DNA of 64,000 nt from Candidatus Latescibacterota bacterium (lineage in GTDB: Bacteria > Latescibacterota > UBA2968 > UBA8231): assembly GCA_965203355.1 (NCBI GenBank), contig OZ241889.1, forward strand, positions 3,264,001 to 3,328,000. The letters run 5' to 3'. Below, piece by piece: positions 14,048 to 64,000 of this stretch. How positions within the stretch are numbered: position 1 is the first letter of the stretch; every line of letters starts with the position of its first letter. Position numbers and translations under genes: made by a program. The notes below the pieces were generated by a model that searched no databases, had not been told where the DNA came from, and saw nothing but the letters and a program-made list of their open reading frames with translations.

Positions 14048-14079
14048 TTTTAAAACTGATACACTATCGAGGACCTTTC

Positions 14080-15635
<1,556 letters not shown>

Positions 15636-15639
<4 letters not shown>

Positions 15640-15872
15640 GCATGACAGTCGCTGAATGGATCGAGTTTCTTGGCAGCTATCCATCTGAGTTGCGTGTCGT
15701 GGTGGACGGCTATGAAGATGGTTACGACGATCTATCGCCCGATCGCATGATCATGGAGCAGATCAGCCTCAATACGGGAACGGAGTCTTGGGAGGGCATG
15801 CACGGCGACCCGAAAGCACCAGACGCGGCCAGAATTGTCGACGCACTGATCTTGCGCCGCGCATCCCATTGA
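15636..15872 (+). CDS. Small acidic hypothetical protein
   Basis: ATGA overlap with the hsdM stop; [20 protein letters not shown]. Confidence 0.7.
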
Positions 15873-15891
15873 GCGCGGTAAGGATTGTTGC

Positions 15892-16308
15892 ATGATTGAC
15901 TATGGGAAGTTTCGGTTGTCGCTCAGACGCTTGGCCGAGCAGCATGACAATTATCGGACGCTGGACGAATCCTTGGACGAACTGATCCGCGAGGGAATCG
16001 CCGAATCCGTTATCCAGCGTTTCGAGACCTGCTATGACTGCTTGTGGAAGGTGTTGAAGAGACATCTTAACGAGGAATTGGGTATCGCCGATCTGCCCAA
16101 CAGCCCCAAACCCGTATTCCGCATCGCGCATGAAAACCTGCCGTTCCCGGCACCGCTGGACCAGTGGCTGGGTTACGCCGAGGCGCGTATAAATACGTCG
16201 CACGATTATGATGGCGAGAAAGCCGAGGCCTGTCTGGAACTCGTGCCCGCTTTCATCGCCGACGCCCGCGATCTCTACGAAACCATGAGCGGTGCAACAT
16301 GGCAGTAG
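15892..16308 (+). CDS. HEPN RNase toxin (HI0074 / nucleotidyltransferase substrate-binding family)
   Basis: IQRFE...WKVLK, SPKPVFR, R-x4-H-x-Y motif RINTSHDY. Confidence 0.88.
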   Translation: MIDYGKFRLSLRRLAEQHDNYRTLDESLDELIREGIAESVIQRFETCYDCLWKVLKRHLNEELGIADLPNSPKPVFRIAHENLPFPAPLDQWLGYAEARINTSHDYDGEKAEACLELVPAFIADARDLYETMSGATWQ

Positions 16309-19594: not shown

Positions 19595-19691
19595 CCCGCT
19601 TTAGCGAATCAACCCTCGGCAGGCACACCCCCCCGGACACGCCGGGCGCGAGGCGACGTGTGCGACCTTTTGAAACGTACGGAGGCATAAG

Positions 19692-20963: not shown

Positions 20964-20964
20964 T

Positions 20965-21189
20965 ATGCCCGCCTCCCATCTCGAGTTTCACGTGGAAGAA
21001 CGTTCCATGGAAGCATTTCTCACCGCCTGGTTGCCGCGCATCGAACGCCTCAAGGTGCGGAATTTCCGCGCACGGCGCGAGGTCGAGCTAAAAAACCTGA
21101 CGCCGCTTACAACAGGCGGTGCAAGCAGCCGCATGAGCTGCGTACATCATAGTCTTGCGTACCTTAGCGTACGCAAGCGAGGGTACTAA
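20965..21189 (+). pseudogene. Truncated DUF4276-like TOPRIM gene fused to a duplicated ATPase fragment
   Basis: HLEFHVEERSMEAFL start typical of AAA_21 partners, then [10 protein letters not shown]..., copied from the upstream gene. Confidence 0.7.
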
Positions 21190-21192
21190 CCC

Positions 21193-22932
21193 ATGACGAT
21201 CAGCGACGAGGACATTCGCCGACAGTTGCGGTTGGGTGAAGATAGCCGCTGGGAATTCAAGCAGATCGAATTCAACGGCGACACCCCCACCAGCCCCCGC
21301 CGAGACGATCTGGCCGATGAACTGGCCGCGTTCGCCAACGCGAATGGGGGCGTGCTCCTGTGCGGCGTATCCGACGACGGACGAGTCAAGGGCATGTCCC
21401 GAAAACAAATAGAAGCGCTCGACCGCCTGTTGGTGGAAGTCAGCACCGACGCCATCGAACCCGCTCTCCGCATCCAAGTTTACCATCGGGAGCTCGATAA
21501 AAGAGCCTTCGTGCTCGCGGAAGTGCCGCGAGGCGACGCTGTTTACGAACGGGACGGGCGCGCGTTCATCCGGGTTGGTTCAACCAAGCGCCGCCTTGAA
21601 GGCAACGAACGCCTGCGGCTGGCACAGAACCGCGCCCAGAGCCGCTATTTGTGGTTCGACAAGCAGGTCGTGCCGCAGACGGGCTTCGAGACGTTTAGCG
21701 AGCGTCTGTGGGAACCGCTGCTCAGCGTGTCTGGAGCGACGGACCCTCGCCGGGGATTGCTGAACCTTCGCCTGTTGGCGCAGGATGAAGCCGGTGTGGT
21801 CCGAGCAACGGTTGCCGGCGTATTGCTTTGTGCCCAGTCGCCGCAAGAATGGTTGCCGCAAGCCACCATTGTGGCAACACACTATCGTGGAGCCGATCGG
21901 GCCTCCGGTCAGTTGGACGCACAGGAAATTGTCGGGCCATTACCCGCCCAGATCACCGACGCGGTGAAGTTCGTCGCACGCAATATGCGCGTTGCTGCGC
22001 GCAAGGTGCCGCAACGCGAGGACCTGCCCCAGTATAGTACAGCCGCGGTGTTTGAAGCGGTAGTGAACGCAGTTGCACACCGCGACTACTCCATGTCCTC
22101 ACGGCGGATCAGACTTTCGATGTTTAAGGACCGCCTCGAGATCGACTCGCCCGGTCAACTTCCCAATGGCATGACCCTAGAAGGCATGGAAGTAAGCCAA
22201 GCCACCCGCAACGAAGTGATCGCTTCCGTATTCGGCAGAATTCCCGTTGGCGAGGTGCCCGGATCAAACCATCGCCGGTACTTGATGGAACGTCGGGGAG
22301 ACGGGGTCTCGATCATCCACAAGGAGACCCGGGAAACCGCCGGTGTCCGGCCGGCATACAAAGTCGTTGACGCATCCAACGTCGTGCTGAGCATCCCCGC
22401 TGCCAAACTCGAACTCACCCCCGCCGACGCAACGGTCGCGGTCCACTCCAAAGGAGTGCCTCTACCCGGAGTCGAGGTTTTGGCCCTCTTTCCGAACAAG
22501 ACGTGGCAGCGGTCCACTACCGACGAGGCTGGCGAAGCAGCCCTTGAGCTGCATACGACGCATCTGCCGATGACCGTTTACGCGGCGGCTCCGGGGTATG
22601 CGGCGGGGCTTGAACGGGAGTGGAGTCCGCACAAGGGCGGTCTGCGGCTGGAACTCGGGCCGCTCCCGGCCGGAGGTGCGGCCATATTCCCCCAAGCCAC
22701 CGGGCACCTCCCCGGCCTGCGCGGGCGGCTAAACCCAATACGCGATACGTCCGACCGGACTTATCTGTACGCAGACAATATCGCCATTGAGGAGGGCCGA
22801 CAGCAGCCGGTGCCTTTTCGGCTCGGCAAGGCAATGCAGCTTACGGACGCTTATGGTGCTGAATTGTCGATAACCATCATTGACATCGTCGGACATTCCG
22901 CATTGGTGGAATATCGGTCGCTCAAGCCATGA
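21193..22932 (+). CDS. Schlafen/AlbA_2 + RecG_C/HATPase_c_4 protein with a beta-rich C-terminal extension
   Basis: [40 protein letters not shown]. Confidence 0.85.
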
Positions 22933-23071
22933 GGCGGTTGTTTGCAGTGCTGGGGATCGGGCTGCCCGGTTTGTCGCCGAGCGCAGAGGCGGGAATGGTC
23001 CCCACCGCGTCCATTCGCAAGCACGTTCCGCACGTGGCCGCGCTTCCTCGGCTGCAACCCAAAGGTTAGAC

Positions 23072-26209
<3,138 letters not shown>

Positions 26210-48552: not shown

Positions 48553-48918
48553 TCAATTATCGCTCAAGGACTTCTCAAGATCTTCTACTGCTTCTATTGC
48601 CTCGGCAATCTCTTTCTTGACCGGATTGATAGTACTGTCGTGGCTGAGCGGATTTAAAATGATCTTTCGGTACAGTTCAATCTTTTCAATGAGTTCTTTT
48701 TTTAATAAACCTTTGCATTTTATCGGACGCCAAAAATCTTCAAATTGGTGAGAGCTGACGGCGGATTCCAAGAATAGCTTCAACGCCATATACAGCGATG
48801 ACTTTCCACTACCGTTTTCACCGTAAATGAGCAGGTTCTTTCCAGCCTTGTGTAGGTTGATTTGGTACGACCCGTAGAAGGCTCTGAAGTTTTTAATTTC
48901 AATCTCTGTAATTCTCAT
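48553..48918 (-). pseudogene. Internally deleted ABC-ATPase-HEPN (RloC/PrrC-like) gene
   Basis: IKNFRAF...GENGSGKSS joined within 121 aa to RKIILNPLSH; no Walker B. Confidence 0.6.
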
Positions 48919-50047
48919 GTCTTGCCCTCAATGATGCGAATGATTTCCAAACTATCGAGAAAGAAAAGATTCTTCCTCACGGGATGCTCTTTGTCAAACA
49001 GCCGCTCAAAAATATCGCGTAGCGCGGGCATCTTATCGTCAGCCATATCCTCGATTGAAGGAAGTTTTTCGTCCAATAGCGGCTTGGAGAAGTACTTGCC
49101 GGCACTATGGAGTTCATCCATCAGATAGAGTTCGTAAACCAACCCGTCAATGATCTGCTCAAAGTACTTGACCATGAGATAATCGCGGGCGTGGGATAGA
49201 TTTTTGCCGTCAGTGCATGGCTGCTGCTGCTTGAGATAGATGATGTAATCCACCATATTAACGATGGGATGTTGATGAGAGCCTTCTAAATTTGGAAATT
49301 TTAATGAGTTCAATTCTCCTGCGGATACTTGGGTATTGCTGTTGATATGTCTAAAAACGAAGTCAGTAAACTTCGAGTTCAAAATTCCCAGCACGAATTT
49401 CAAGGATACGTCTTTGGTTTGTGTAATTAGATAGGATGTATGGTTCTCTGTCTGAATAGGATAACCAAAAGTGTGAGGCGAAAATAAGTGAGCAATTATA
49501 CGTCGCTCTTGTTCCACAGAAGTAGTTCTTTGTACGATGATAGTATCATGCGTAATGGGCTGATGTTTTTCTAGTCGTTCGTTTATATAGATTCTATCTG
49601 CTCGTTTTCTCGCTTCACTATAACAATATCGTTGAACGTTTTCAGCCCAGATAAGTCGTGTCGAGATAGAAAGCGGAGTATCTCCCAAAACAGACTTGTA
49701 TAAATCCCACTGTATCTTCCCTGTTGTAAAAGATAAGCTATATTCTTTGAGGGATTTGAGTTTTCTAAGTCTTTTAAAAACTTCATATACTTGGTAGTTA
49801 TTCCCAACGATGAACAACGGGGTATTGTTTTGAGAATATAAAAAATCCTCTTGCGAAACTTCTATCCAATTTTTTTCTGAAATATCTTCTTTCCTTAATA
49901 TACTTTTCACTCTGATCGGATCGATAATACCCGTATTCTGAAAGCTGTTCACAATACAAGACTGCAATACGGACTTAAATACATTTCGACGATCGACAAT
50001 ATTCAAAATAGATCTAATTTGGCTGTGTTTCAAGACAAAAGTTCTAA
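48915..50047 (-). pseudogene. 3' part (TRD region) of the IS-interrupted type IIG R-M gene
   Basis: LGILNSK, ELNSLKFP, IIDGLVYELY; in frame with the 5' part once the IS is removed. Confidence 0.85.
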
Positions 50048-50975
50048 GAAGCGTTTTTAAAATTCATTTTTTTTAGCGATTCGCTTGAGTATCAAATGGA
50101 TCATCGCGATTTGGATAAAGGCTTCACTATTGCAAGTTAGGTGCTCGTAGTCTTTGGCATGGACTCGATAGTTGAGTAGCCAAGCAAACGTTCGTTCGAC
50201 GACCCAACGACGAGGGAGCACCTCAAAGCCGGAGCCTTGTCTGGATACGACTTCAAGGTCTATTTTGTGCGTTTTTTTTTTGAGCCACCCATTGCCTAAG
50301 CGGCGCGCCTTTATAGGCTCCATCCACCCACAGCTTGCGTAACCTTTGTACCGTGGGTGAAAAGTAGGTTTTCAACAAGGTCTTCAAGCCGTCGGCATCC
50401 GAGGTCGAAGCAGCGGTCACCACACACTCAATCAGACGACCCTCGGTGTCGACCAACAGATGGCGTTTGCGTCCTTTAACCTTCTTGCCGGCATCGTATC
50501 CAACACTTTTACCTTGGGTGGCCGTGGTAACGCTCTGCGCGTCCACGATCCCCGCCGACGGGGTCGGTGCCCGGCCGTGCTGGATGCGATCCTGCCTGGT
50601 TAGGGCGTCGAGTATCTGTGGCCAAACCCCTTGTTGACGCCAGCGATTGAAGTAGCCATACACCGTTTGCCAAGGCCCAAAACACCGCGGCAGCATCGGC
50701 CAAGGACACCCGGTTTTAGCCCGATACAGTAGACCATTCATCACCAAACGCACCGCCCGAGGTGGCCGACCCGGACCCCCTTGACGCCAACGGCCCCGAG
50801 GCAGCAGACGAGCAAGTAACAGCCATTGTGCATCGGTCAAATCCGTCGCATATTCTACACCGGGCGTACCCATATATAACCCCCCTTTCAGGCTTTGTGA
50901 TGAAACCTAAAGGTCGGTTCATGGGTACGTCCTTTCAAGGGAAAATCAACTAAAAGTGAATTTTAAAAAGGCTTC
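50048..50975 (-). mobile_element. IS5-family insertion sequence (IS1031-like), 928 bp
   Basis: 19-bp IRs GAAGC(G/C)TTTTTAAAATTCA, TAA target duplication at 50045-47 and 50976-78, DDE transposase. Confidence 0.93.
50057..50873 (-). CDS. IS5 transposase split by a frameshift at an A10 run (50272-50281)
   Basis: [35 protein letters not shown], then [11 protein letters not shown] in another frame. Confidence 0.88.
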
Positions 50976-53481
50976 TAAGTGCTGAGCAATAACTATCGGT
51001 AAGCAATGTTCTTGGGTTAATAAAAATCAACATCCCATTGTTCGCTAACAAATCACTCAACCCACGGTGAATAAAATAGCCATAAAGATTGGGACGACCA
51101 TAGACACTTTCGCTATAAATTTTGCGCAACTTTTTGTCTTTACTCACCACGTAAGGCGGATTACCAATCACCACATCAAATCCATCAGCAACCCCAAACA
51201 TGTACTCAGCATCAAACCAATCGGCCTTATCATTTTGATTATAGGGGTTCCAATGGGCGATCTTGTCCGCGTCATCTAGGGGAAGCCCGGCCGATTTTAG
51301 TTCCCTCGCCAGCATCCCGCGCAACCGCTTGTCCTCGCTTCTGCAAGCTAATTTCTTCCGGCGCGTGGTCGCGTGAAAATGCTGCTCTCGATTGTCTCCT
51401 AGCTTCTTTTTTAGCTCCTCAATCTGTTGGCGGAATAAGTCCAGTTGATCTGCTTCTTCGATCCTCAACAGCGTGTTCGCCGCCACAAAGCGCGTCTCCA
51501 AGTTCGGCAATGGCTTGATGCCAAAATTCTCCGCGTTGAGATCGCGATCCTGCTCAATCGCTAGCGAAATGAAAAAGCGCAACTTGGCGATCTGGCAGGC
51601 GATAGGCTGAATATCCACGCCGAAAATGCTGTTCTGAATGAGATACAGCTTGCGTCCGAAATCTCCTGAATACCGCGCAAAAGTTTCGCTAATATCCAAC
51701 AACTCCGCATCTCGTTCCTGCTGATCTCGATCCTCAAACGCCTGGATCGCCCGTTCTTTGGCTCGCTCCTTTTGCAGTGCTTCCCAGCGTTCATTGTCAG
51801 GGTCGATTCGCTGCAACGCCAAAGTCAGCTTATGCAGTACGCCCATGGGAAATGCACCGGTGCCAACAGCCGGGTCCAGCACTTTGACCTCGGCAATCGC
51901 CTGTACAAGACACTCTGATTCTTCTTCCTCAAAAAGCTCGTTGGCGTCGTCGAATGTATCCTCATAATCCAGCAGATAATGCAAGCGTTCTTTCCAGAAG
52001 GCCATGTCACCATCGTTCGGATAGCATTTTTCTGCCAAGGTCGCCACTAACGCTTCTTCCGCCATATAATCCACGACGACACGCGGTGTGTAGTACGATC
52101 CAGTCTGCTTGCGGGCTGTCTCACGTGTTTCTGGATTGTATGTTGCCAGCAAGTTCTCAAAGATATTGCCGAGTAATTCCGGATCCAGAGCGACTTCTTG
52201 CTCTATGGGCGTGTTCTCCTCCACCGTGAACTTGTACTTGTTGAATAAGGTGATTAGCCCCTCGGTGCCGAAAAACAAGCGATTGGGAACGGATAGCAAC
52301 TTGCGATGACTCGGATTGTCGGAAAAGCAGTCGATGCGGTAGCCACCATCGCCGGTCGCCGCTTCACTGTCGAGGCAGTCAAACAAGCCGCCGTTGATGA
52401 AAGGGGTCTGAGCAAACAAGTCCAATAGCGCATCGGGATCGTTGATTTCTTTTTTATAGCGATAGCGAGAAAAATTGCGGTGTGTAGTGTTGCTTACTTT
52501 GCTAAAGTCGCGCTTGCTAATTTCCGTGTTCAGGGTGGCGAAAAACAGATTTTGCAACACGGCGCGGTAATAAGAATCCCCGGTGTCGCGGTCGTAATTT
52601 TTCAGCAGTTGGCCGATTTGTTTCTCAACGAATAGCTCTTCGGCGACCAGCCCTTTTTCTTTAATGAACCAGACAAAGAGCAGACGGGTAATGAGGCGAA
52701 TGACGTGTTCCTCCGGCGGGAGCGTTCGCTGCTGATTGTTCGGAAAAGTCGCCTGACTGACAGCACGCTCAAACCAAGCGAATAGGTCTTGGTAGAACTT
52801 CCGGTTCAGTTCCTCAGTGTCCAGCGCGTCCAACCAAGCAGCTAGCAACCCGTCAAAATTCATTGGATGGCCGTTGTCACCCATCCAATGCAGCCGTTTT
52901 TCCAACACAAGGTCGCCGAGAATTTCCAAGTGAGCGCGATGCGGATCGCTCAAATCTATCTGCCGCACGAGCGCAACGCTGCCGAGCACATCGCGCTCCG
53001 GGTTGCGCTTGTTCTCGCGGCGATAGACAAAAGCGAGCGTCAGCAGATCGCTGGTGGTCTTGAATAGAACGACGGTGGGTATGAGAAATCGCTTGTTGAT
53101 CTCGCGCGTGAACAGGGCATACTCGCTGCGAGCGTAATTCGCCCCGCTCAACTCCACTGCCACAAAGAGAAAGCTCTTGCTGTTGCCGCTATCAAAATCG
53201 TCGATTGTAGGCCCACTCCCCCCAGCCGCGATTTCCGCGTCCGTTAGCTGAAAGACGATATGCGCGGATGCAGCACTGCTGCGAAACGCCGCCTCTGACT
53301 GCGTGTTGGGTGTTGTGGATGGCAGCGCGGCGAGAAAAGCATCTACATCGCCGGAAAGCGGAATCGTCTTCGCGCTCTCGTAGCCCAGCGCATTAAGCAA
53401 CTTCTGCGTTGCCGCCATGAAGTCGGTCTCTAGCATGGCGGCCAGCGCAGCCGTAATTCGGTTTATGCTCGAGTCATTCAT
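50976..53481 (-). pseudogene. 5' part of a type IIG (Eco57I-like) restriction-modification enzyme
   Basis: NGGLF, GSYYTP, DPAVGTGAF, GVDI, GNPPY. Confidence 0.9.
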
Positions 53482-53614: not shown

Positions 53615-55780
53615 GTGTCCAACCTCCGCCTGCAATTTCCCGGTGCCTTGCTTAGCCTCCTGTTCGCCGCTTCCAGTGCCGACCCAGCCGACTGGCCTTC
53701 TTGGCGCGGACCAACGCAAAACGGCGTCTCCGCAGAAACCGACCTCGTCGAATCCTGGTCGCCGGTCTGGCACGCCGCATTCACCGGACGCTCGACCCCC
53801 ATCGTCCTCAACGGACGAGTATTCGTCATGGGTCGCCGCGGCGAGGGTATCGAGCACGAGGGCGTCGTCGCCGCCTTTGACGCCCAAGACGGCACCCTAC
53901 TCTGGGAGCACACCCACAACATCTTCCACACCACCATCCCCTTCAACCGCGTCGGCTGGGCCAGCCTCGCTGGCGACCCAGAGACCGGCTACATCTACGC
54001 CCATACCGTCAGCGGACTGTTCCTTTGTTTTGACCGCGATGGCGAGGTGGTCTGGTCGCGCTCGCTGACCGAGGAGTTCGGGCGCATCTCCGGCTACGGC
54101 GGCCGCGTCCACACGCCCGTCGTCGATGAAGATCTCGTCATCATCAGCTATCTCAGTTCCAACTGGGGCCATCACACCCCGGGCCGCCACCGCTACTTCG
54201 CCTTTGACAAGCGCAGCGGCGAAGTCTTCTGGATCGCCACCCCGGGCGGCCGACCGCTCGACACCACGTACTCGGTGCCGGTCGTCGCCACCATCAACGG
54301 CGTCCGCCTGCTCATTGGCGGCAACGCCGACGGCTCCATCTACGCCCTGAAAATCCGCACCGGCGAAAGCGCGTGGGGCTTCAAGCTCAGTCGGCGCGGC
54401 ATCAACGCTTCGGTCGTCGTCGCGGGCGACAAGGTGTACGCCGCCCACAGCGAGGAAAATCTCGACAACACCGCCCTCGGCCGCGTCGTGTGCATCAACG
54501 CCACCGGCCAAGGCGACGTCACCAACACCCACGAGGTCTGGCGCTACGACGGCGTTTTCGCCGGTTATAGCAGTCCAGTTGTCGGCGATGGCCGCTTGTA
54601 CATCATCGACAACTCGGCCAACATCCACGCGCTCGACGCCGCCACCGGCCAAGTCCACTGGATCCACAACATCGGCACCGTCGGCAAAGGATCGCCCGTG
54701 CTGGCCGACGGGCGGCTCTACGCGCCAGAAGTCAACGGCCGCTTCGCCATCGTCGCCCCGGGTCCCGACGCGGCCGAGACCCTGGACCTCGCCGAGATTG
54801 CCATGCCCGACGGACGCCCGGCCGAACTGTTCGGCTCGCCAGCCGTAGCGTATGGCCGCATCTACCTTTCCACCGAGGCCGGCGTTTACTGCCTCGGCGA
54901 CCCGGCCGCGCCGTTTGCGGTCGCAGCGACCGCCGCCGACTATCCACGCGAGCCAGCACCCGCAGACGCCACCCCGGCGCATCTGCAAATCACGCCCGCC
55001 GAAGTAGTAGCCCAGCCCGGCGCCAGCCTAGCGCTTCGCGCCCGAGCCTTCGACGCAAACGGGCGGCTCATCGGCCCAGTCGCAGCCGAGTGGTCGCTCG
55101 CCGGTCCGGTCGGCCAACTCGACGGCCATACGCTCGTCCTCGCGGACGCACCCGGCGGCGGCAAAATCGTCGCCCGCGCCGGCGAACTGGTCGCCGAGGC
55201 GCGCATTGCCGTGCTGCCGCCGCCGACCTACAGCGCGGACTTTGAGGAATTCGCCGTTGACGCCGCGCCAGCTTGGGTCGGCATAGGCCGCAAGTTCACG
55301 GTGCGCGAAGTGGCAGGCAACAAGGTGCTGGTCAAGCCACCCGCCGCCCGCGGCCTGCACCGCGCCAACACCTACCTCGGCGCCCCGGACATGGCCGGCT
55401 ACACCATCCAAGCCGATCTGCTCGGCACCAAGAAGCGCCGCGCTGTCCCGGATCTCGGCCTGATTGCCCAGCGCTACACTCTCGACCTGATGGGCTACCA
55501 CCAGCAGTTGCAGATCCGCACTTGGGCCGCCGAGCTGCGGATGGCCAAGACCGTGCCCTTCGCTTGGGAAACCGGCGTCTGGTACACCATGAAGATGCAG
55601 GTGGAAATCGCCGGCGATACCGCCCACATTCGCGGCAAGGTCTGGCCCCGCGACGCGCCAGAGCCAGCCGCGTGGAGTATCGAGGCGGTCGATCCCCGAC
55701 CCAACCGCAGCGGCAGCCCCGGACTCTACGGATATTCTCCCGCTGAAATCTACTACGACAACCTGAAAGTTTGGCCATGA
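53615..55780 (+). CDS. Secreted PQQ-like beta-propeller with Ig-like and ConA-like C-terminal domains
   Basis: Signal peptide, DWPSWRGP..NG, repeated A.D..tG...W blades. Confidence 0.85.
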   Translation: MSNLRLQFPGALLSLLFAASSADPADWPSWRGPTQNGVSAETDLVESWSPVWHAAFTGRSTPIVLNGRVFVMGRRGEGIEHEGVVAAFDAQDGTLLWEHTHNIFHTTIPFNRVGWASLAGDPETGYIYAHTVSGLFLCFDRDGEVVWSRSLTEEFGRISGYGGRVHTPVVDEDLVIISYLSSNWGHHTPGRHRYFAFDKRSGEVFWIATPGGRPLDTTYSVPVVATINGVRLLIGGNADGSIYALKIRTGESAWGFKLSRRGINASVVVAGDKVYAAHSEENLDNTALGRVVCINATGQGDVTNTHEVWRYDGVFAGYSSPVVGDGRLYIIDNSANIHALDAATGQVHWIHNIGTVGKGSPVLADGRLYAPEVNGRFAIVAPGPDAAETLDLAEIAMPDGRPAELFGSPAVAYGRIYLSTEAGVYCLGDPAAPFAVAATAADYPREPAPADATPAHLQITPAEVVAQPGASLALRARAFDANGRLIGPVAAEWSLAGPVGQLDGHTLVLADAPGGGKIVARAGELVAEARIAVLPPPTYSADFEEFAVDAAPAWVGIGRKFTVREVAGNKVLVKPPAARGLHRANTYLGAPDMAGYTIQADLLGTKKRRAVPDLGLIAQRYTLDLMGYHQQLQIRTWAAELRMAKTVPFAWETGVWYTMKMQVEIAGDTAHIRGKVWPRDAPEPAAWSIEAVDPRPNRSGSPGLYGYSPAEIYYDNLKVWP

Positions 55781-57198
55781 CGCAAACCATTTGCAGCCTC
55801 ATCCTCGCCCTCGCCGCGGCCGCCGGCGCCCAAACCGCAATGTGGGGCGGCTCGCCCGGGCGCAATCCGGTCTCGGACGAGCAAAACCTGCCCACCACTT
55901 GGGACGTCGAGACCGGCGCAAACGTCAAGTGGCGGGCCACGCTCGGCTCGCAGACCTACGCCGGGCCCCTAATCGCCGGCGACAAAATTTTCGTCGGCAC
56001 CAACAACCAAGCCGAGCGCGATCCCAGCCATAAGGGAGACCGCGGCGTAGTCATGGCCTTTTCCCTAGCAGACGGTGCTTTCCTCTGGCAAATCGCCCAC
56101 CCCAAGCTGCCGGCTGGCCGCGTCAACGACTGGCCGCAACAGGGCGTCTGCTCCACTCCTTTTGTCCACGGCGATCGCCTCTACTACGTCTCCAACCGCG
56201 CCGAAGTCGTCTGCCTCGACACCGAGGGCTTCCGCGATGGCGAGAACGACGGCCCCATCGCCGACGAAACCGCCACCGCGCCCACCAATGCGGATCTGAT
56301 CTGGAAATTCGACATGATCGCCGAGTTGGACGTCTTCCCCCACAACCTCGCCACCAGCTCGCCACTCGGCGTGGACGGTCGCCTCTTTGCCCTGACCAGC
56401 AACGGCGTGGACGAGGGCCACATCCACATCCCGGCCCCCTTTGCCCCCAGCTTCATCGCCCTCGACATGCAGACCGGCCAGCTCCTCTGGGACAGCGCCC
56501 TGCCCGGCGACCAAATTCTGCACGGCCAGTGGTCCAACCCGGCCTATGGCGAGGCCGGGGGCCGCAAGCAGGTCGTCTTCCCCGGCGGCGACGGCTGGGT
56601 CTATGCCCTCGCGCCCGACACCGGCGAGTTGATCTGGAAATTCGACTGCAACCCCAAGGATTCGGTGTGGGAATTGGGCGGGCGTGGCACCCGCAACAAC
56701 CTCGTCTCCACGCCCGTCTTTTACGACGGCAAGGTCTATATCGGCGTCGGCCAAGACCCGGAGCACGGCGAAGGCGAGGGTCACCTATGGGCCATTGACG
56801 CCAGCGGCACCGGCGACATCACCGAGACGGGCGCAATCTGGCACTTCGGCGACAAAAACTACAACCGCACCATCTCCACGGTCGCCATTGCCGACGGCCT
56901 GCTCTACGCCGCCGACCTGAGTGGCTTTGTCTATTGCCTCGACGCCAAGACCGGCACCCACCACTGGACCCACGACACCTTCGCCGCGATCTGGGGCTCG
57001 CCCTTTGTCGCCGACGGCAAGGTCTATATCGGCGACGAAGACGGCGACGTCGATGTGCTCAAGGCCGGCAAAACGCTCGCAGTACTACACGAGACGAACT
57101 TGGGCAGCGCCGTGTACACCACCCCAGTCGCCCGCGACGGCGTCTTGTACATCGCCTCGCGCAACACCCTCTTCGCCATCGCGGCGGCAAGCCAATGA
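55777..57198 (+). CDS. Secreted PQQ-like beta-propeller
   Basis: Signal peptide, WGGSPGRN, CLDAKTG..W; ATGA overlap. Confidence 0.85.
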   Translation: MTQTICSLILALAAAAGAQTAMWGGSPGRNPVSDEQNLPTTWDVETGANVKWRATLGSQTYAGPLIAGDKIFVGTNNQAERDPSHKGDRGVVMAFSLADGAFLWQIAHPKLPAGRVNDWPQQGVCSTPFVHGDRLYYVSNRAEVVCLDTEGFRDGENDGPIADETATAPTNADLIWKFDMIAELDVFPHNLATSSPLGVDGRLFALTSNGVDEGHIHIPAPFAPSFIALDMQTGQLLWDSALPGDQILHGQWSNPAYGEAGGRKQVVFPGGDGWVYALAPDTGELIWKFDCNPKDSVWELGGRGTRNNLVSTPVFYDGKVYIGVGQDPEHGEGEGHLWAIDASGTGDITETGAIWHFGDKNYNRTISTVAIADGLLYAADLSGFVYCLDAKTGTHHWTHDTFAAIWGSPFVADGKVYIGDEDGDVDVLKAGKTLAVLHETNLGSAVYTTPVARDGVLYIASRNTLFAIAAASQ

Positions 57199-58271
57199 GC
57201 GTCTCACCCGATAAAATCGCCGCGGCCCGCCGCGACCTCGACGCGCACGTCCGCGCCATCGTCGAGTGGCACTTCAACCCCGCAACCGGCTGCCCGTTCT
57301 GGCTTGCCTACGCGCAACAACTCGATTTCGACCCGCGCGAGCAAATCCGCTCCTATGACGATTTGGCCCGGCTCGGCCACTTTGAGGACGAGTGGCTGCG
57401 CGGCGGCCCGGTGCGTCAGTGGGTGCCCAAAGCCTATGCTGACGAGCCGATTTGCGTTTTTGAGACCGGCGGCTCCACGGGCTTGCCCAAATACCGCATC
57501 AACATCCGCGACTTCCAAGCCGACTACGCGCTCTACAGCGAGAGCCTGCCCGAGGAGGGTTTTCCCCAGGGCGCCGACTGGCTGATGCTCGGGCCTTCGG
57601 GGCCCCGCCGCCTGCGCTTGGCCATCGAGTATCTCGCCCAGCTACGCGGCGGCTTGTGCTTTCTGGTAGATCTCGACCCCCGCTGGGTCAATGAACTCAT
57701 CCGCGACGGCAAGATGCGCGAGTTAGACGCCTACAAAGCCCACGTCGTCAATCAGGCGCTCAAAATCCTCAAGGCCCACGACAACGTGCAGTGCGTCTTC
57801 ACCACGCCCCGCCTCCTTGAAGCCCTCTGCGAAAAAGTCTCCCTGCCCAAGCTCGGCATTAAGGGCATCTTCTGTGGCGGCACGGAAATGAACGCCCAGT
57901 TCCATCGCTTCGCCCGCGAGGAGTTGGTGCCCGGCCTCGCCTTTGTCCCCACCTACGGCAACACCCTAATGGGCCTCGCCTGCCCTAAACCCTTTGACCC
58001 AGCCGACGAATACGCCATCGCGTATTACCCACCGCAGCCACGCGCCGTCATCGAGTTGGTCGATCCCAAAGATCCCACGCGCAAGGTCGGCTACGGCGAG
58101 ACCGGCCGCGTCATGCTCACCACCCTGACCGAGGAATTTTTCATGCCCCGCTTCCTCGAACGCGACGAAGCCGAACGCACCGCGCCGATTGAGGCGTATC
58201 CGTGGGATGGCGTTAAAAATTTGCGACTGCTGACCGAGTTGCAGGAGGCGGTGGTGGTGGGGGTGTATTGA
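57195..58271 (+). CDS. EhpF/LuxE/PaaK-like adenylate-forming enzyme
   Basis: WHF.P.TG.PFWL, P-loop FETGGSTGLPK, GGT, YGNT, ERD; ATGA overlap. Confidence 0.75.
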   Translation: MSVSPDKIAAARRDLDAHVRAIVEWHFNPATGCPFWLAYAQQLDFDPREQIRSYDDLARLGHFEDEWLRGGPVRQWVPKAYADEPICVFETGGSTGLPKYRINIRDFQADYALYSESLPEEGFPQGADWLMLGPSGPRRLRLAIEYLAQLRGGLCFLVDLDPRWVNELIRDGKMRELDAYKAHVVNQALKILKAHDNVQCVFTTPRLLEALCEKVSLPKLGIKGIFCGGTEMNAQFHRFAREELVPGLAFVPTYGNTLMGLACPKPFDPADEYAIAYYPPQPRAVIELVDPKDPTRKVGYGETGRVMLTTLTEEFFMPRFLERDEAERTAPIEAYPWDGVKNLRLLTELQEAVVVGVY

Positions 58272-58328
58272 GAGAACAGCTTATCACTTATAGCTTGCAA
58301 CACTTCATCGCCAACCCAAAACCCAACC

Positions 58329-59726
58329 ATGCACCTACCCATCCTCCGCGCCGGCCAGCCCTACACCAGCCTCGACCGCCTCACCATCGCCCACATCGCC
58401 ACCGGCCAACCTGTGGCCCAAGTCAGCCAAGCCAACCGCGGCCTCATTGCCCGCGACTTAGCCGCCCAAGAGCGCAACTACCACGCCCTGCAAGCGCTCC
58501 CGGTCGCCGAACTAGTCGCCATCGGCCAACGCGCCGCCGACCTTTTCTTGCGCGCCGAGCTACCTTTAGGCGACCGCCGCCAAACCCCGGACGACTACGT
58601 CGCGCAAGTCTCGGCCACCACCGGCTTGCCGCAGTCGCTGGCCCGCGCCAACATGGACAAAATCCACCGCGTCGGCAGCGAAATGCCCGCCGTACTCAGC
58701 GGCCTGACCCGAGGCCTAGACCTGGCCACCCTCGACGACGGCCCCAGTCCGCTCCATTTCGCGCCCCATGCTCAAGCCCTCGGCTGCATCCTGCCGAGCA
58801 ACTCCCCCGGCGTCCACGCCCTGTGGCTGCCAGCCATCCCGCTCAAAATCCCGCTGGTGCTCAAGCCGGGCCGCGAAGAGCCGTGGACGCCCTACCGCAT
58901 CGCCCAAGCCCTGGCCGCAGCCGGCTGTCCACCCCAAGCCCTGAGCTACTACCCAACCGACCACGGCGGCAGCACCGAGATTCTGCTCGGCTGCGGGCGG
59001 TCGCTGCTATTCGGCGGCGGTTCTACAGTCGCCCCTTGGCGCGACGATCCCCGCATCCAACTACACGGACCAGGGCGCAGCAAGATCATCATCGGCGCGG
59101 ACCAAATCGACCGCTGGGAACACTATCTCGACTTGATGGTCGCCTCAATCGCCGCCAACGGAGGCCGCTCCTGCCTCAACGCCTCGGGCGTCTGGGTGCC
59201 CGCCCATGGCCGCGCCATTGCCGCCGCCCTCGGCGAGCGCCTGAGCCAAATCCAAGCCCGCCCCCTCGACGACCCTCAAGCCCAAATCGCCGCCTTCCCC
59301 AAGCCGGCCGTAGCGCGTCAGATCGCCGCCCTCATCGACGGCCAACTCGGCGACAAAGCGCAAGACACCGCGAGAGGACCTGCCGAGCGCGTCGCCGAGA
59401 TCGATGGCTGCACCTTCCTCAACCCGACCTTAATCCACGCCCCGGACTGGCAACATCCGCTGGCCAATACCGAATATCTCTTTCCGTTTGCCTCGGTAGT
59501 AGAAGTCCCGCAAGAAGAAGTGGTCGCACGCATCGGCCCGACGCTGGTGGCCACCGCCCTCACCGAGGACGAGCGCCTAACGCGCCAACTGCTCGCCGCC
59601 CCCCACATCGAACGCCTCAACCTCGGCCCGATCCCCACCCACGAGATCGCGTGGGATCAGCCGCACGAGGGCAACCTCTTCGACTTCCTCTACCAGCAGC
59701 GCGCCTTGCAGCGCCGGGCCGGATGA
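58329..59726 (+). CDS. ALDH-fold acyl reductase (EhpG/LuxC-like)
   Basis: PSNSP, LKP, LFGG, HGPGRSK, catalytic Cys in GGRSCLNAS, EYLFP. Confidence 0.8.
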   Translation: MHLPILRAGQPYTSLDRLTIAHIATGQPVAQVSQANRGLIARDLAAQERNYHALQALPVAELVAIGQRAADLFLRAELPLGDRRQTPDDYVAQVSATTGLPQSLARANMDKIHRVGSEMPAVLSGLTRGLDLATLDDGPSPLHFAPHAQALGCILPSNSPGVHALWLPAIPLKIPLVLKPGREEPWTPYRIAQALAAAGCPPQALSYYPTDHGGSTEILLGCGRSLLFGGGSTVAPWRDDPRIQLHGPGRSKIIIGADQIDRWEHYLDLMVASIAANGGRSCLNASGVWVPAHGRAIAAALGERLSQIQARPLDDPQAQIAAFPKPAVARQIAALIDGQLGDKAQDTARGPAERVAEIDGCTFLNPTLIHAPDWQHPLANTEYLFPFASVVEVPQEEVVARIGPTLVATALTEDERLTRQLLAAPHIERLNLGPIPTHEIAWDQPHEGNLFDFLYQQRALQRRAG

Positions 59727-60850
59727 CCCCCTTCGACTTTGATCCATCCACCCGCGTAGTCTTTGGCGCCGGAACCCTCGGCCAGCTAGGCACCCTCGCC
59801 AGCGCGTTGGCCGGCCCGCGCATCCTGCTCGTAACCGATCCCGGCCTCGTCCAAACGGGCCTCGCCGCCCAAGCCCGTCGCGCCCTACAAAACGCCGGCC
59901 TCAAGACAACCACTTTTTCCGCCGTAGCAGAAAATCCCACAACCGACCACGTAGCCGCTGGCGCCGACCACGCCCGCACCCACGGCCCCATCGACCTCAT
60001 CGTCGCCTTGGGCGGCGGCAGCGCCATGGACTGCGCCAAGGGCATCAACTTCCTGCTGACCAACGGCGGCCCGATGCACTTCTACCAAGGCTACGGCAAA
60101 GCCACCCGACCCATGCTGCCTTCCATCGGCATCCCCACCACCGCCGGAACGGGTAGCGAGGCCCAATCCTACGCCCTGCTTACCTGCGCCAACACCGGCG
60201 CGAAAATGGCCTGCGGCGACCGCAAAGCGCGCTTCCACATCGCCATCCTCGACCCAAACGCGCTGACCAGCGTCCCCCACCGCGTCCGCGCCGATGCCGG
60301 TATCGACGCCCTCGCCCACGCGGTCGAAAGCTACGTCTGCACCTGCCGGACGCCGCTGTCCCAGATGTTCGCCCGCCAAGCCTGGCGGCTGCTCGCACCC
60401 CACTACGCAGCCGCTGTCGCCGATCCGCAAAACGCGACCGCCGCTCTGCTTTTAGGTGCTCATCTGGCTGGCATGGCCATCGAAAACTCCATGCTCGGCG
60501 CCGCTCACGCCACCGCCAATCCGCTCACCGCCCACTACGCACTCACCCACGGCCGCGCCGTAGCCCTGATGCTGCCGCACGTGATCCGGTTGAACAGCCA
60601 AGCGGTGGACGAGCTATACGGCGAACTTTGCGCCGACATCCAACTCAACGGCCGGGGCCGCGCACTCGCCGCCCACCTCGAAAAATTGTGCGCCACAGCC
60701 GGCCTACCACGCCGACTCGCCGATTGTCAGGTCGCCGAAAATGATCTGCCTACCATGGCCCGAGCAGCCGCTGGTCAGTGGACCGGGACCTTCAACCCGC
60801 TTCCCTTGCAAGAAGCCGACTTCCTGCGGCTTTACGAGGCGGCGTTTTGA
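59723..60850 (+). CDS. Iron-containing alcohol dehydrogenase
   Basis: GGGSAMDCAK, PTTAGTGSE, DALAH, H, HG; ATGA overlap. Confidence 0.92.
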   Translation: MTPFDFDPSTRVVFGAGTLGQLGTLASALAGPRILLVTDPGLVQTGLAAQARRALQNAGLKTTTFSAVAENPTTDHVAAGADHARTHGPIDLIVALGGGSAMDCAKGINFLLTNGGPMHFYQGYGKATRPMLPSIGIPTTAGTGSEAQSYALLTCANTGAKMACGDRKARFHIAILDPNALTSVPHRVRADAGIDALAHAVESYVCTCRTPLSQMFARQAWRLLAPHYAAAVADPQNATAALLLGAHLAGMAIENSMLGAAHATANPLTAHYALTHGRAVALMLPHVIRLNSQAVDELYGELCADIQLNGRGRALAAHLEKLCATAGLPRRLADCQVAENDLPTMARAAAGQWTGTFNPLPLQEADFLRLYEAAF

Positions 60851-60896
60851 TGGACAACTTTCGACTGAAACCAAATGCGATATGTAAAATTATCCT

Positions 60897-61031
60897 TCAG
60901 GCGTGCGGAGAAATTGCACTTCGCTCCTTGCTTCCGCTCCCTACGCCGAGCAACAAGCGCGAATGCGTCACAAGCAAGCTATTCAGAACGGAGAACATTT
61001 CATCCGGCAATTCCAAGGTGACTTTAGTCAT
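60897..61031 (-). pseudogene. Possible antitoxin N-terminal remnant (UPF0175-like)
   Basis: Manual translation MTKVTLELPDEMFS..., 44 aa, in an AT-richer gap. Confidence 0.3.
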
Positions 61032-61139
61032 AATCAACGTTCTGATTTCTCACACTCGGTTAAGGCTGGTGTCTGTCACCAAATCAGCAAAATGTCACTT
61101 CTCTTTTAATTTCGTCCACAATCCCCCAACCAACAGAAT

Positions 61140-62228
61140 ATGCCACTCTACTTCTTAACCGCGTTCCTCGCCACCGCGGCTACGGCCGACACTTGGAACA
61201 CCTTTCGCGGCAACCCCCAACTCACCGGCGTCGCCTCCGCCGAGCTCGCCCCACCCCTAACGCTGCGCTGGGCCTACGCCACCCAAGACGCCATCGAATC
61301 CACGGCCGCCATACACAAAGGCACGGTGTACGTCGGCTCACTCGACGGACAACTCTATGCACTCGACTTGCACACGGGCGCGTTGGTCTGGCAGTACCAA
61401 GCCGACGGCGAGATCAAGTCGTCGCCCACGGTAGCCGACAGCACCGTGTACTTCGGCGACGAAGCCGGCACCTTCCACGCCGTCGCCATTGAAAACGGCC
61501 AGCGCCGCTGGACCTTCACGGCCGACGCGGGCATCATCTCCGCGGCCAACTACGCGGATGGCCGTCTTTACTTCGGCAGCTATGACCAGCACCTATACTG
61601 CCTCGGCGCAACCGCCGGGACCCTGATTTGGAAAATCGCCACAGAGGGGTATATTCACAGTACGCCGGCATTGTACGAACATCGCGTCGCCGTGGCGGGT
61701 TGCGACGGCTACTTGCGGCTTTTGGACCGCGCCGACGGCACCGAGCACCAGCGGCTTGAGCTGGGTGGATACGCAGCCTCCAGCGCCGCCATCCACGCGG
61801 GAAGCGCGTACTTAGGCACTTTTGGCAACGAAGTACTAGGCGTCGATTTAGGCGCGGGAGCCATTCGCTGGCGCTACGCCCACGCGGTGCGGAAATTTCC
61901 GTTTTACTCGTCGCCCGCTGTCGCCGACCAAGCAGTCGTCATCGGCGGCCGCGACAAACTCGTCCACGCGCTCGACCCACAAACCGGCCAATCCTTGTGG
62001 ACTTTTGCCGCGGGCATACGGGTGGATTCCTCGCCGGTCATTGCTGGTGCCTATGTGTACGTAGGGGCCCGGGCGATCATCGCCATTGCCATCGCCTCGG
62101 GCGCGGAAGTCTGGCGCTTTGACCCGGGCGCAGCCATCACCGCTTCGCCCGCTATCGCCGCGGACCGACTCGTCCTGGGTGCCACCGACGGCGTGCTGTA
62201 TTGCTTTGCCAAAGAAGTCAAACCATGA
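61140..62228 (+). CDS. Secreted PQQ/BamB-like beta-propeller
   Basis: WNTFRGN..LTG, repeated SSP.V...VY.G blades. Confidence 0.85.
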   Translation: MPLYFLTAFLATAATADTWNTFRGNPQLTGVASAELAPPLTLRWAYATQDAIESTAAIHKGTVYVGSLDGQLYALDLHTGALVWQYQADGEIKSSPTVADSTVYFGDEAGTFHAVAIENGQRRWTFTADAGIISAANYADGRLYFGSYDQHLYCLGATAGTLIWKIATEGYIHSTPALYEHRVAVAGCDGYLRLLDRADGTEHQRLELGGYAASSAAIHAGSAYLGTFGNEVLGVDLGAGAIRWRYAHAVRKFPFYSSPAVADQAVVIGGRDKLVHALDPQTGQSLWTFAAGIRVDSSPVIAGAYVYVGARAIIAIAIASGAEVWRFDPGAAITASPAIAADRLVLGATDGVLYCFAKEVKP

Positions 62229-63574
62229 GTGATGCTAAGTCCCAACCGAGCAACGACCCCGCGACCACCCGCGCCGACCGCACCGCCACCGAGGTCGGCA
62301 GCGTCTTTGTCTCCAACTATCCCGCCTATTCGTTCTGGGGCGAGGAAGACGTCCCGCAAGCACACCGCGCACTCGCCGAGCCACCGCGGCCCGGCACTCA
62401 GCTCGGCCTCTACCTCCACATCCCCTTCTGCCGCAAGCGCTGCAAGTTCTGTTACTTCCGCGTCTATACGGACAAAAACAGCCAGCAAATCCAGACCTAT
62501 CTCGACGCCCTCGCCCGCGAAGTGGAACACTACGCGCAACAGCCAGCCATCCAAGACCGGCCCCTGCACTTTATCTACTTTGGCGGCGGCACGCCCTCTT
62601 ACATCAGTTCGCGGCATCTCCGCGCGTTGGCAGCACGCCTCCAAGACGCCATGCCTTGGGACCACGCCGACGAAATCGCCTTCGAGTGCGAGCCGGGCAC
62701 CCTGACCCAAGCCAAGTTAGAAGCCATCCGCGCCATCGGCGTCACCCGCCTCAGCTTGGGTATAGAAAACCTCGACGACGAAATTCTGCGCCACAACGGC
62801 CGCGCCCACGTCAGCCAGGAAATCTACCAAGTCGTGCCCTGGATCCACGCGCTCGACTTCGAGCAGGTCAACGTCGATCTGATCGCCGGCATGGTCGGCG
62901 AAACCTGGCCGAGCTGGCGGCAGACCGTGCAAAAGACCGTCGAGCTCAATCCGGACAGCGTCACCGTTTATCAGCTCGAGTTGCCCTACAACACGGTCTA
63001 TTCCAAGGACCTACTCGCTGGCGACCGCACGCCGCTGGCCCTGGCCGACTGGCAGACCAAACGCGCCTGGCACGCCTATGCCTTCGAGCAGCTAGCCGCC
63101 GCTGGCTACGTGCGTTCGAGCGCCTACACCATGACGAAAACGCCGGGCGCCCGCTTCGCGTACCGCGACGCCGTGTGGACCGGCCAAGACCTGCTCGGCA
63201 CCGGCGTGGCCTCCTTCTCGCACCTGAGCGGCGTCCACTACCAGAACGCGCCCAACTGGGACGAGTACCTCGCCGCCTGCGAGCGCGGCGAACTCCCCAT
63301 CCACCGCGCCTTTGCCACCAACCGCGAAGAGCAACTCACGCGCGAGGTGATCCTCCAGCTCAAGTTAGGCGCGTTGGATCCCGCGTATTTTCGCGCCAAA
63401 TTCGGGGTCGATATCGCGGCCCATTTCGCGGCGGCACTCAGCGGCCTGCGCGACGAGGGCATGCTCCAATTCGATGCCAACGCGATTGCGCTGACCAGCG
63501 AGGGCCTCCTGCGCGTCGATCAGCTGCTGCCCGACTTCTACCAAACCCAATACCGCAACGCACGCTACACCTAA
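62225..63574 (+). CDS. HemN-like radical SAM enzyme
   Basis: YLHIPFCRKRCKFC, FGGGTPS, RLSLG, NVDLI.G, HemN_C tail. Confidence 0.9.
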   Translation: MSDAKSQPSNDPATTRADRTATEVGSVFVSNYPAYSFWGEEDVPQAHRALAEPPRPGTQLGLYLHIPFCRKRCKFCYFRVYTDKNSQQIQTYLDALAREVEHYAQQPAIQDRPLHFIYFGGGTPSYISSRHLRALAARLQDAMPWDHADEIAFECEPGTLTQAKLEAIRAIGVTRLSLGIENLDDEILRHNGRAHVSQEIYQVVPWIHALDFEQVNVDLIAGMVGETWPSWRQTVQKTVELNPDSVTVYQLELPYNTVYSKDLLAGDRTPLALADWQTKRAWHAYAFEQLAAAGYVRSSAYTMTKTPGARFAYRDAVWTGQDLLGTGVASFSHLSGVHYQNAPNWDEYLAACERGELPIHRAFATNREEQLTREVILQLKLGALDPAYFRAKFGVDIAAHFAAALSGLRDEGMLQFDANAIALTSEGLLRVDQLLPDFYQTQYRNARYT

Positions 63575-63587
63575 ATGGGAGGTACCC

Positions 63588-64000
63588 TTGAAAACCACCA
63601 TCGCACTTCTGCTCTGCTGGACCGCCGCGGCCCAAGCGGCCGACTGGCCTCAATGGCGCGGCCCTCAGCGCGACGGCATCTCCAGCGAAACCGGCCTCTT
63701 TAAGGCCGAGCAACCTTTTGCGGAAGCATGGCGCGTCCCGCTCGGCTCGGGCTTCTCCGGCATCGCTATCGCCGACGGCCGGGTCTTCACCATGTTCGCC
63801 CAAGGCCAAGACGAATTCGCCATCTGCCTCGATGAACAAACCGGCGCAGAACGCTGGCGGCACCGCACCGGCCCTTACTACCGGGAGACCCAAGGGGGCG
63901 ACGGCCCGCGCGCGACGCCCACCGTCGATGGCGAAGTCGTCTATGTACTCGGGGCCACCGGCGCGTTGTTCGCGCTCGACGCCGCGCGTGGTGCGCTGAT
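63588..64000 (+). CDS. Secreted PQQ-like beta-propeller, partial
   Basis: GGAGG RBS, TTG start, AQA-ADWPQWRGPQRDG, GPRATPTVDG (manual translation). Confidence 0.85.
   Translation, partial: MKTTIALLLCWTAAAQAADWPQWRGPQRDGISSETGLFKAEQPFAEAWRVPLGSGFSGIAIADGRVFTMFAQGQDEFAICLDEQTGAERWRHRTGPYYRETQGGDGPRATPTVDGEVVYVLGATGALFALDAARGAL

Follow-up and report, generated by a model that had tools for sequence, protein, structure and literature searches.

EhpF and EhpG, encoded by neighboring genes in the Pantoea agglomerans cluster for D-alanylgriseoluteic acid, a phenazine (PDB 3hgu, 3l2k), pair a truncated adenylating enzyme of the ANL type with a protein of the aldehyde dehydrogenase (ALDH) fold and are said to reduce a carboxylate in phenazine tailoring. 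A similar division of labor is described, in the accessible part of the source, for grixazone biosynthesis in Streptomyces griseus, where GriC and GriD form a two-protein reductase that converts 3-amino-4-hydroxybenzoate to its aldehyde (PMC10179220). Here, we analyze a locus in which genes for full-length homologues of EhpF and EhpG have other partners. It comprises eight open reading frames (ORFs), all on the forward strand, that occupy positions 53615..64000 of a 64,000-nucleotide stretch (the window) from a Candidatus Latescibacterota bacterium (assembly GCA_965203355.1, contig OZ241889.1, positions 3,264,001 to 3,328,000). In the order P1, P2, F, G, ADH, P3, SAM, P4, they encode four predicted exported, pyrroloquinoline quinone (PQQ)-like propellers (P1–P4), the EhpF- and EhpG-like proteins (F and G), an iron-containing alcohol dehydrogenase (ADH), and an enzyme of the radical S-adenosylmethionine (SAM) type.

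F and G resemble EhpF and EhpG in gene adjacency, in the truncated ANL enzyme ending in GVY, and in an ALDH fold in which the catalytic Cys is retained and no Glu is available as general base. They differ in sequence (identities of approximately 30% and 27%, respectively), in the pocket motif of F, and in their partners, which in the cluster described here are propellers, the iron-containing alcohol dehydrogenase, the radical SAM enzyme, a family 4 glycosyltransferase (GT4), and an ATP-binding cassette (ABC) transporter. GriC/GriD is likened to F/G by description, not by sequence, as an AMP-binding protein and reductase pair that takes an aryl acid to the aldehyde; in contrast to the grixazone system, aminohydroxybenzoate synthase and phenoxazinone synthase were not seen in the mapped loci. 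Phenazine core genes were likewise absent from every mapped locus, and a search for PhzA/B returned nothing in five carrier genomes, with the controls silent too.

The eight genes are the front half of a cluster of approximately 16 genes, and this cluster is a widespread pathway, undescribed as far as our searches reached, that is assembled from known enzyme families. The earlier note on this stretch had taken the locus for a candidate undescribed pathway, and no match to a characterized one was found in our searches; nor was a literature description, in a search that left outside its scope subscription papers, bioRxiv supplements, and the supplements of PMC7306690 (on the genomic context of squalene–hopene cyclase (SHC)-like genes). 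Gene content, family identities, catalytic residues, synteny, and co-inheritance are established here. Throughout, L and G numbers denote loci and genomes of relatives, in which the genome-level tests were made.

A probable acid-reducing module of the EhpF/EhpG type

F (57195..58271, + strand, 358 aa) aligns over residues 9–358 with residues 14–366 of EhpF (E 2e-43 against 3l2k/3hgu; hhalign E 6.6e-42). Both sequence motifs that the earlier note had quoted as an EhpF pattern, WHFNPATGCPFWL and ETGGSTGLPK, are found in the protein; the P-loop is present and the chain stops, as that of EhpF does, before the C-terminal ANL subdomain. Relatives of F fall into at least 8000 clusters; the closest (90–93% identity) come from metagenome-assembled genomes titled Candidatus Latescibacterota or Gemmatimonadota, and it is 34–38% identical to proteins annotated as 'arylcarboxylate reductase'. 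Residues R138, R139, and R141 are invariant among 41 F sequences, whereas EhpF has H-I-G at these positions; the RRLR motif replaces the HI of both EhpF and the 'arylcarboxylate reductase' protein. Judged by its position after the P-loop, this stretch is probably the acyl pocket, and because its motif is unlike that of EhpF, a phenazine is an unlikely substrate for F; the true substrate may have a second anionic group.

G (58329..59726, + strand, 465 aa) bears a weak likeness to ordinary ALDHs (best PDB match E 1.3e-8) and aligns from end to end with the product of the ALDH-family gene located after ehpF in the P. agglomerans phenazine cluster (hhalign E 9e-34). Among 37 aligned orthologues, Cys282, Asn158, Lys179, and Glu382 are invariant, with His246 at the position of the Glu of hydrolytic ALDHs, a residue set that, by analogy with ALDH chemistry, fits the reduction of an activated acyl group. 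Of the 64 loci with at least 9.5 kb of downstream sequence, 60 have G after F. A model of the F–G complex scored 0.72, whereas the highest-scoring of three controls gave 0.00; the mark applied to such models is reached by 116/157 solved pairs vs 2/215 mismatched pairs. The runs agreed in at least 89% of contacts, with a partner pLDDT (predicted local distance difference test) of at least 87, and the predicted interface uses conserved residues (Q235, R238, and E243 of F; S14 and G38 of G), so the model supports binding of F to G. No Lux model (LuxE/LuxC) was returned for F or G in the Pfam and NCBIfam scans. The EhpF/EhpG type of acid-to-aldehyde module that the earlier note had proposed is supported by the full-length homology of both proteins and by the F–G model, and we consider it likely, with good confidence, that F and G perform this step.

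Distant relatives of the pair occur in other settings. A Halalkalicoccus (haloarchaeal) plasmid carries distant symporter, F-like, G-like, and SDR genes near genes for an amine oxidase and a penicillin acylase (L223:6508-11332), and a Streptomyces plasmid has an 'arylcarboxylate reductase' gene directly before a type I polyketide synthase (PKS) gene, with no G-like neighbor (L222:6944-14993). In L141 (7145-14438) and L142, a gene for a distant F-like protein (35–38%), without G, follows SDR-, SCP2-, and MMPL-like genes and precedes a U32-peptidase-like gene, an aminotransferase gene, and cytochrome b/c genes (neighbors identified by eye); this locus possibly belongs to another lipid or quinone pathway.

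Synteny and co-inheritance

The same order of genes is found again in Latescibacterota, Poribacteria, KSB1, Acidobacteriota, and Planctomycetota, and since it is kept across five phyla the arrangement is not due to chance; the linkage of enzymes with propellers in other genomes, on which the earlier proposal hinged, is thereby upheld. Within 10-kb flanks of the 80 best of 129 confirmed F loci, a sample biased to close relatives, the genes around F are P2 in 75 loci, P1 in 73, G in 67, ADH in 39, P3 in 31, and SAM in 27. The 25 Planctomycetota loci have G in 21, ADH in 14, SAM in 12, P2 in 11, P3 in 10, and P1 in 9.

At the level of whole genomes the profiles are nested. F is present in 30 of 151 Planctomycetota genomes (E < 1e-110), and the genomes with SAM (29) and with the halogenase gene described below (28) all fall inside this set, as do 28 of the 31 with P2; GT4 occurs in 41, including all 30 F carriers. 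Among the 121 Acidobacteriota, F is present in 31 genomes and SAM in 28, none of them outside the F set; the 32 genomes with GT4 comprise the 31 F carriers plus one. Co-occurrence holds where the genes are scattered in the genome (for example G040, G060, G077, G125, and G139). Fourteen Planctomycetota genomes with distant F-like matches only (E > 1e-60, 32–39%) were scored F-negative, and none of the cluster genes was found in the 11 of these that were fetched. The P2 profile search, in which 10 candidates were scored, missed G057 and G123 (the P2 of G057 is visible in L123), and the halogenase search missed G126, whose locus L136 holds a 42% copy. The cluster genes are nearly always single-copy, and F is 50–93% identical across phyla.

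The alcohol dehydrogenase and the radical SAM enzyme

ADH (59723..60850, + strand, 375 aa) passes the Pfam cut-offs for Fe-ADH and ADH_Fe_C and has the metal residues D195, H199, H262, and H276.

The radical SAM protein (62225..63574, + strand, 449 aa) is HemN-like, with the Pfam domains Radical_SAM and HemN_C and a CxxxCxxC motif at residues 69–76, features that make it a predicted member of the class C C1-transferases. It has these features in common with HemN, NosN/NocN, MenK, and ChuW/HutW (best PDB matches HemN, E 1.6e-37, and NocN, E 1.8e-27) but falls below each named equivalog cut-off (NCBIfam HemN 201 of 325 bits, HemW 151 of 205, HutW 200 of 400, and HemZ 152 of 321). It constitutes a separate orthologue group; carriers hold additional, more distant HemN/HemW-like genes. 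According to the accessible portion of PMC10114718, the class works by two-SAM methylene-radical chemistry, its enzymes add a SAM-derived one-carbon unit to rings, and NosN acts on thioester-bound substrates. A second, paralogous radical SAM group (39–44% identical to that of the window) is encoded in L181 (9338-11800), L182, L183, L184, and L186, and in L181 and L182 it adjoins a second halogenase-like gene.

The remainder of the cluster in relatives

In compact loci the remaining genes of the cluster can be seen. They encode a DUF3311 protein together with a sodium:solute symporter, a flavoprotein of the Trp_halogenase family, GT4, a thioesterase of the 4HBT type, a small membrane protein that matches no family, an ABC ATPase, and a 1131-aa double FtsX permease. 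Part of the loci also have a PaaK-like ligase, a chorismate-lyase-like protein, a MarR regulator, a TonB receptor, and extra propellers. An ESM Atlas look-up returned generic names only.

The GxGxxG motif, a catalytic Lys, and the WxWxIP motif characterize flavin-dependent halogenases, and all three (the Lys as Lys69) are kept in 15/15 aligned sequences of the flavoprotein, which we accordingly predict, from its family motifs, to be such an enzyme. Its best PDB matches are of the PltA/ChlB4 type, and the related models include the hydroxylases QhpG and LodB. The chorismate-lyase-like (UbiC-like) protein matches AF1396 (2nwi, E 1e-4) and is fused to the halogenase in L127. GT4 (for example L157:11101-12378) has an invariant CGxC near its N terminus in 14/14 sequences, plus another common Cys; the motif is unusual for GT4 and is a possible metal or Fe–S site.

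Two described clusters were considered as matches for the locus and set aside. The baaAB cluster of Planctomycetales strain 10988 makes 3,5-dibromo-p-anisic acid and, like the cluster here, has a chorismate-lyase-like gene beside a halogenase gene in a planctomycete (bioRxiv 10.1101/723874). It was rejected as the same locus, by description, because BaaB is Bmp5-like (approximately 44% similar), whereas our halogenase is PltA/ChlB4-like, and the accessible part of that preprint mentions no reductase, radical SAM enzyme, or glycosyltransferase. The coelulatin cluster, from what is available of PMC9714029, is a type II PKS cluster.

The propellers and the GT4-ABC-FtsX block

All four propellers pass Pfam PQQ_2 (P1 with 139.5 bits), and their N termini are hydrophobic, with nine-residue Kyte–Doolittle peaks of 2.07–2.86 vs 1.01–1.66 in the four enzymes; export is predicted from this hydropathy. 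P1 (53615..55780, + strand, 721 aa) and P2 (55777..57198, + strand, 473 aa) are 8-bladed PQQ_2/BamB-like propellers with Trp-docking repeats, whose nearest folds are YxaL and BamB, followed by tetrathionate hydrolase and quinoproteins. In P1 (AlphaFold pLDDT 90.6; best folds YxaL, Z 38.5, and BamB) the propeller spans approximately residues 21–430 and is followed by two C-terminal all-β domains that have no sequence match in the PDB; for P2 (pLDDT 88.6) the Z scores are 37.3 with YxaL, 35.7 with BamB, and 30.1 with PedH. The fold is thus like that of BamB, YxaL, and the quinoproteins, but the window propellers stay below the family cut-offs, with 21–139 bits against 285 for the BamB model (TIGR03300) and 18–68 bits against 480–833 for the quinoprotein models (TIGR03075, 19–68 vs 480; TIGR04528, 30–58 vs 650), and they have their own family-specific conserved loops. 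Vicinal CC is a motif of alcohol/methanol quinoproteins; none is present in P1–P4. In L158 (2026-6933), cluster propellers are fused to C-terminal esterase domains (approximately 800 aa).

Conservation in P2 is concentrated on one face. Loops were assigned from the strand list of the model and the usual topology of propellers. In the top-face loops, 24 of the 52 residues with charged or amide side chains are at least 90% conserved, vs 3 of 25 in the bottom loops (Fisher p 0.004, 41 sequences). The conserved top-face residues include H189, H215, H249, H330, D118, D212, D327, E329, and R364. This His/Asp/Glu-rich face suggests an active or binding site and makes P2 a candidate enzyme or ligand binder. 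P3 (61140..62228, + strand, 362 aa) is a small propeller that matches Pfam Beta-prop_ACSF4 (196.5 bits vs a cut-off of 133), with 16 conserved polar positions vs 57 in P2 and a conservation that is mostly structural. P4 (63588..64000, + strand) is cut by the window end after its N-terminal 137 aa; in relatives it is approximately 412 aa long, with complete genes in L157 and L022.

P3 is also found without F. Eleven of the 121 F-negative Planctomycetota have GT4, and in the GT4 loci of the ten that were fetched (all but G096) the P3-GT4-ABC(-FtsX) arrangement is intact in L161–L165, L168, and L171. Its neighbors there vary and include a DUF116::polyprenyl synthase, a prenyltransferase-fold protein, an SHC-like cyclase, a B12-type radical SAM enzyme, a ferredoxin, and NapH-like and NuoEF-like proteins. 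Since the block also stands beside SHC-like genes, it serves more than one upstream pathway, and P3 belongs to this predicted glycosylation-and-export block. The SHC-like gene occurs in 32/151 Planctomycetota, 30 of which have GT4 and 22 F. Two loci link it physically to the reductase cluster: L202, where it shares a strand with ADH-P3-SAM and the UbiC-like gene, and L204, where it does so with P1-P2-symporter-F. Replacement of F/G by the terpenoid block was rejected as an explanation, as those 22 genomes carry both. Outside the Planctomycetota, one of five carriers has the SHC-like gene (G005; it was not found in G003, G004, G002, or G244), which is therefore not needed. An SHC-like clade of Planctomycetes has been published as making unknown products (PMC7306690); it has the P3-GT4-ABC-FtsX block in common with our cluster, sometimes at the same locus, and differs in lying outside this window, in not being found in G003, and in that the accessible part of the publication does not mention the reductase cluster. 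In L161–L171 (for example L164:1-19900), L202, and L204, the block is joined to terpenoid and ferredoxin-NapH-NuoEF-like redox blocks, with or without F/G.

Layout and surroundings of the locus

The eight co-oriented genes and four stop/start ATGA overlaps (beginning at 55777, 57195, 59723, and 62225) reported in the earlier note are present as given there. The alternation of propellers with enzymes that it described is not strict: two propellers are followed by three enzymes, a propeller, an enzyme, and a propeller. The other three junctions are gaps of 57 bp (58272-58328), 289 bp (60851-61139), and 13 bp. The 289-bp spacer has 45% GC vs approximately 65% in the genes, has short blastn matches in seven related loci, and is partly common with inserts of related Latescibacterota; it is no conserved part of the cluster, and the same ADH-P3 junction in L002 is a 33-bp gap. 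Many Latescibacterota and Poribacteria copies (L002–L021, L025–L039, L055–L070) have inserts of 0.3–8 kb, made up of toxin–antitoxin-like and small genes, at the F–G and ADH–P3 junctions, and the window copy is unusually compact. A promoter and terminator scan gave signal at shuffle level.

As the earlier note had stated, no phz or pqqA-E genes were recognized in the window, its ORF lists being read by eye and no family scan made of its whole length. Upstream of the cluster, on the − strand, lies an Eco57I-type restriction-modification methylase gene (48553-53481, Pfam) that looks interrupted; after it come an IS5-like transposase ORF (50253-50873) and more low-GC ORFs. Type I restriction-modification genes (hsdM, hsdS, and hsdR-like, by eye), interleaved with AAA ATPase genes, occupy 14026-26209 on the + strand.

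Discussion

As the likeliest reading, we propose that the cluster constitutes a conserved biosynthesis-and-delivery pathway for an envelope-bound glycoside, a scheme that, taken as a whole, we hold to be as probably right as wrong, and in which all substrates, the sequence of reactions, the way transport runs, and the part played by each propeller are inferred. The starting carboxylic acid, most likely hydroxy-aromatic, would be imported through the DUF3311 protein and the sodium:solute symporter (with a TonB receptor in some loci) or, in some genomes only, be made by the chorismate-lyase-like protein. Tailoring would probably take place on a coenzyme A thioester, onto which the PaaK-like ligase would load the acid; the PltA-like flavin enzyme would add a halogen (or a hydroxyl) and the class C radical SAM enzyme a one-carbon unit, before the 4HBT thioesterase freed the tailored acid. 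F would then adenylate the free acid and hand the acyl-AMP to bound G, where a thioester on Cys282 would be reduced by NAD(P)H to the aldehyde, and the iron-containing alcohol dehydrogenase would convert the aldehyde to the alcohol. Glycosylation of this alcohol by GT4, with its CGxC motif, may be followed by transfer to the periplasm by the LolD-like ATPase and the double FtsX permease; there, P3 and further propellers would receive the product, and P2 would act on it or bind it.

Several observations weigh against this scheme. The predicted pocket of F differs from those of EhpF and the 'arylcarboxylate reductase' protein, so the substrate may not be aromatic, and the UbiC-like gene was found in none of the five non-Planctomycetota genomes searched (including the closest relative, G003), in a search with no positive control. 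PaaK is confined to a subset of the loci, the L195/L196 cluster has no halogenase gene, and L048 and L050 lack ADH between G and P3. The GT4-ABC-FtsX-P3 block also occurs in 11/121 F-negative Planctomycetota and is therefore not dedicated to the F/G product, and FtsX-type ABC systems need not export small molecules. Finally, the co-occurrence counts ignore kinship, and genome completeness values are absent from them.

Two alternatives depart from the envelope glycoside scheme in the nature or the fate of the acid. If the acid were a lipid (fatty or isoprenoid), the cluster would make an envelope glycolipid by the logic of the heterocyst glycolipids, namely acyl-chain reduction, glycosylation, and ABC export. 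According to the accessible part of PMC11804610, attachment of the sugar by HglT is the final step there, and an ABC transporter acts on these glycolipids; in Planctomycetota, combination with the SHC-like cyclase/polyprenyl synthase module may then yield a meroterpenoid. The terpenoid genes that adjoin the block in L161, L164, and L169–L171, and the distribution and linkage of the SHC-like gene in Planctomycetota (including L202 and L204), speak for a lipid, which we nevertheless think unlikely: the SHC-like gene is found in one of five carriers elsewhere, F and G have no Pfam LuxE/LuxC match, and the described EhpF and GriC substrates, together with the PaaK-, PltA-, and UbiC-like neighbors, point to aromatics. 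Alternatively, the cluster could take up and either neutralize or salvage an environmental acid, such as an aromatic derived from lignin or algae, and have no product of its own. The symporter and DUF3311 genes stand directly before F in many Planctomycetota loci, TonB receptors and the MarR regulator lie within the cluster, and the distant symporter-F-G-SDR block recurs on the Halalkalicoccus plasmid. However, enzymes of the halogenase, radical SAM C1-transfer, and chorismate-lyase-like kinds generally build molecules and do not break them down, and the cluster genes show strong conservation and seldom occur in more than one copy; we consider salvage very improbable.

A third alternative concerns the purpose of the product. 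The earlier note had raised the possibility of a non-PQQ cofactor or ligand for the orphan PQQ-like propellers; such a cofactor would be exported and inserted into them to give periplasmic redox enzymes. F carriers are richer in PQQ_2 candidates (a median of 86.5 vs 21, or 11.8 vs 4.9 per Mb, a crude proxy), in line with its expectation for propeller copy number, but that expectation holds in part only, as 17 of the 43 genomes with at least 50 candidates lack F. Nine of these 17 have GT4, as a salvage pattern would predict, and the other eight are without GT4 as well (G082 has 235 candidates). The four His on the conserved polar top face of P2, and the ferredoxin, NapH-like, and NuoEF-like genes that adjoin the block in F-negative genomes, would suit a redox role. 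Against it, the propellers score far below the quinoprotein cut-offs and lack a vicinal CC, the fold of P2 is nearer to those of YxaL and BamB than to that of PedH, and P3 sits in a block that occurs also without the reductase enzymes. The link with pqq absence that the earlier note expected did not materialize: pqqC is present in 3/31 carriers vs 5/90 non-carriers among the Acidobacteriota (Fisher p 0.42), in a search that gave positives where a previous one in five genomes had been blank, with its controls silent. A role with P1 or P2 is still conceivable, but as the predicted correlations are weak or absent, we regard a propeller cofactor as distinctly unlikely. The earlier reading is supported in its acid-reducing module and its synteny and weakened in its cofactor role, and it was drawn from a window that contains only the front half of the cluster.

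A broader possibility, which we entertain as doubtful, is that P3-GT4-ABC-FtsX acts as a general loading dock that glycosylates and exports interchangeable aglycones, whether a halogenated, methylated benzyl-type alcohol made by the cluster described here, a cyclic isoprenoid made by the SHC-like cluster, or, where both occur, a hybrid, with the product serving as a cofactor or redox carrier for propellers such as P2. If so, P2 would be a new type of propeller enzyme, and the product a core envelope molecule in approximately one-fifth to one-quarter of Planctomycetota and Acidobacteriota species.

New here are the nested profiles in two phyla, the test of pqqC and propeller number, the shared P3-GT4-ABC-FtsX block, the conserved face of P2, and the F–G model. 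With genes that rarely occur in more than one copy, that show strong conservation and are inherited together even where they are dispersed, and that turn up in 30/151 and 31/121 sampled genomes of the two phyla, the pathway resembles core metabolism more than a rare antibiotic cluster. If the envelope glycoside scheme is true, abundant soil and marine bacteria would make a probably halogenated glycoside, with a bearing on natural sources of organohalogens and on envelope biology; the EhpF/EhpG family would gain its commonest natural role, and both the expanded PQQ-like propellers and the SHC-like cyclases, each an orphan group, would become more approachable.

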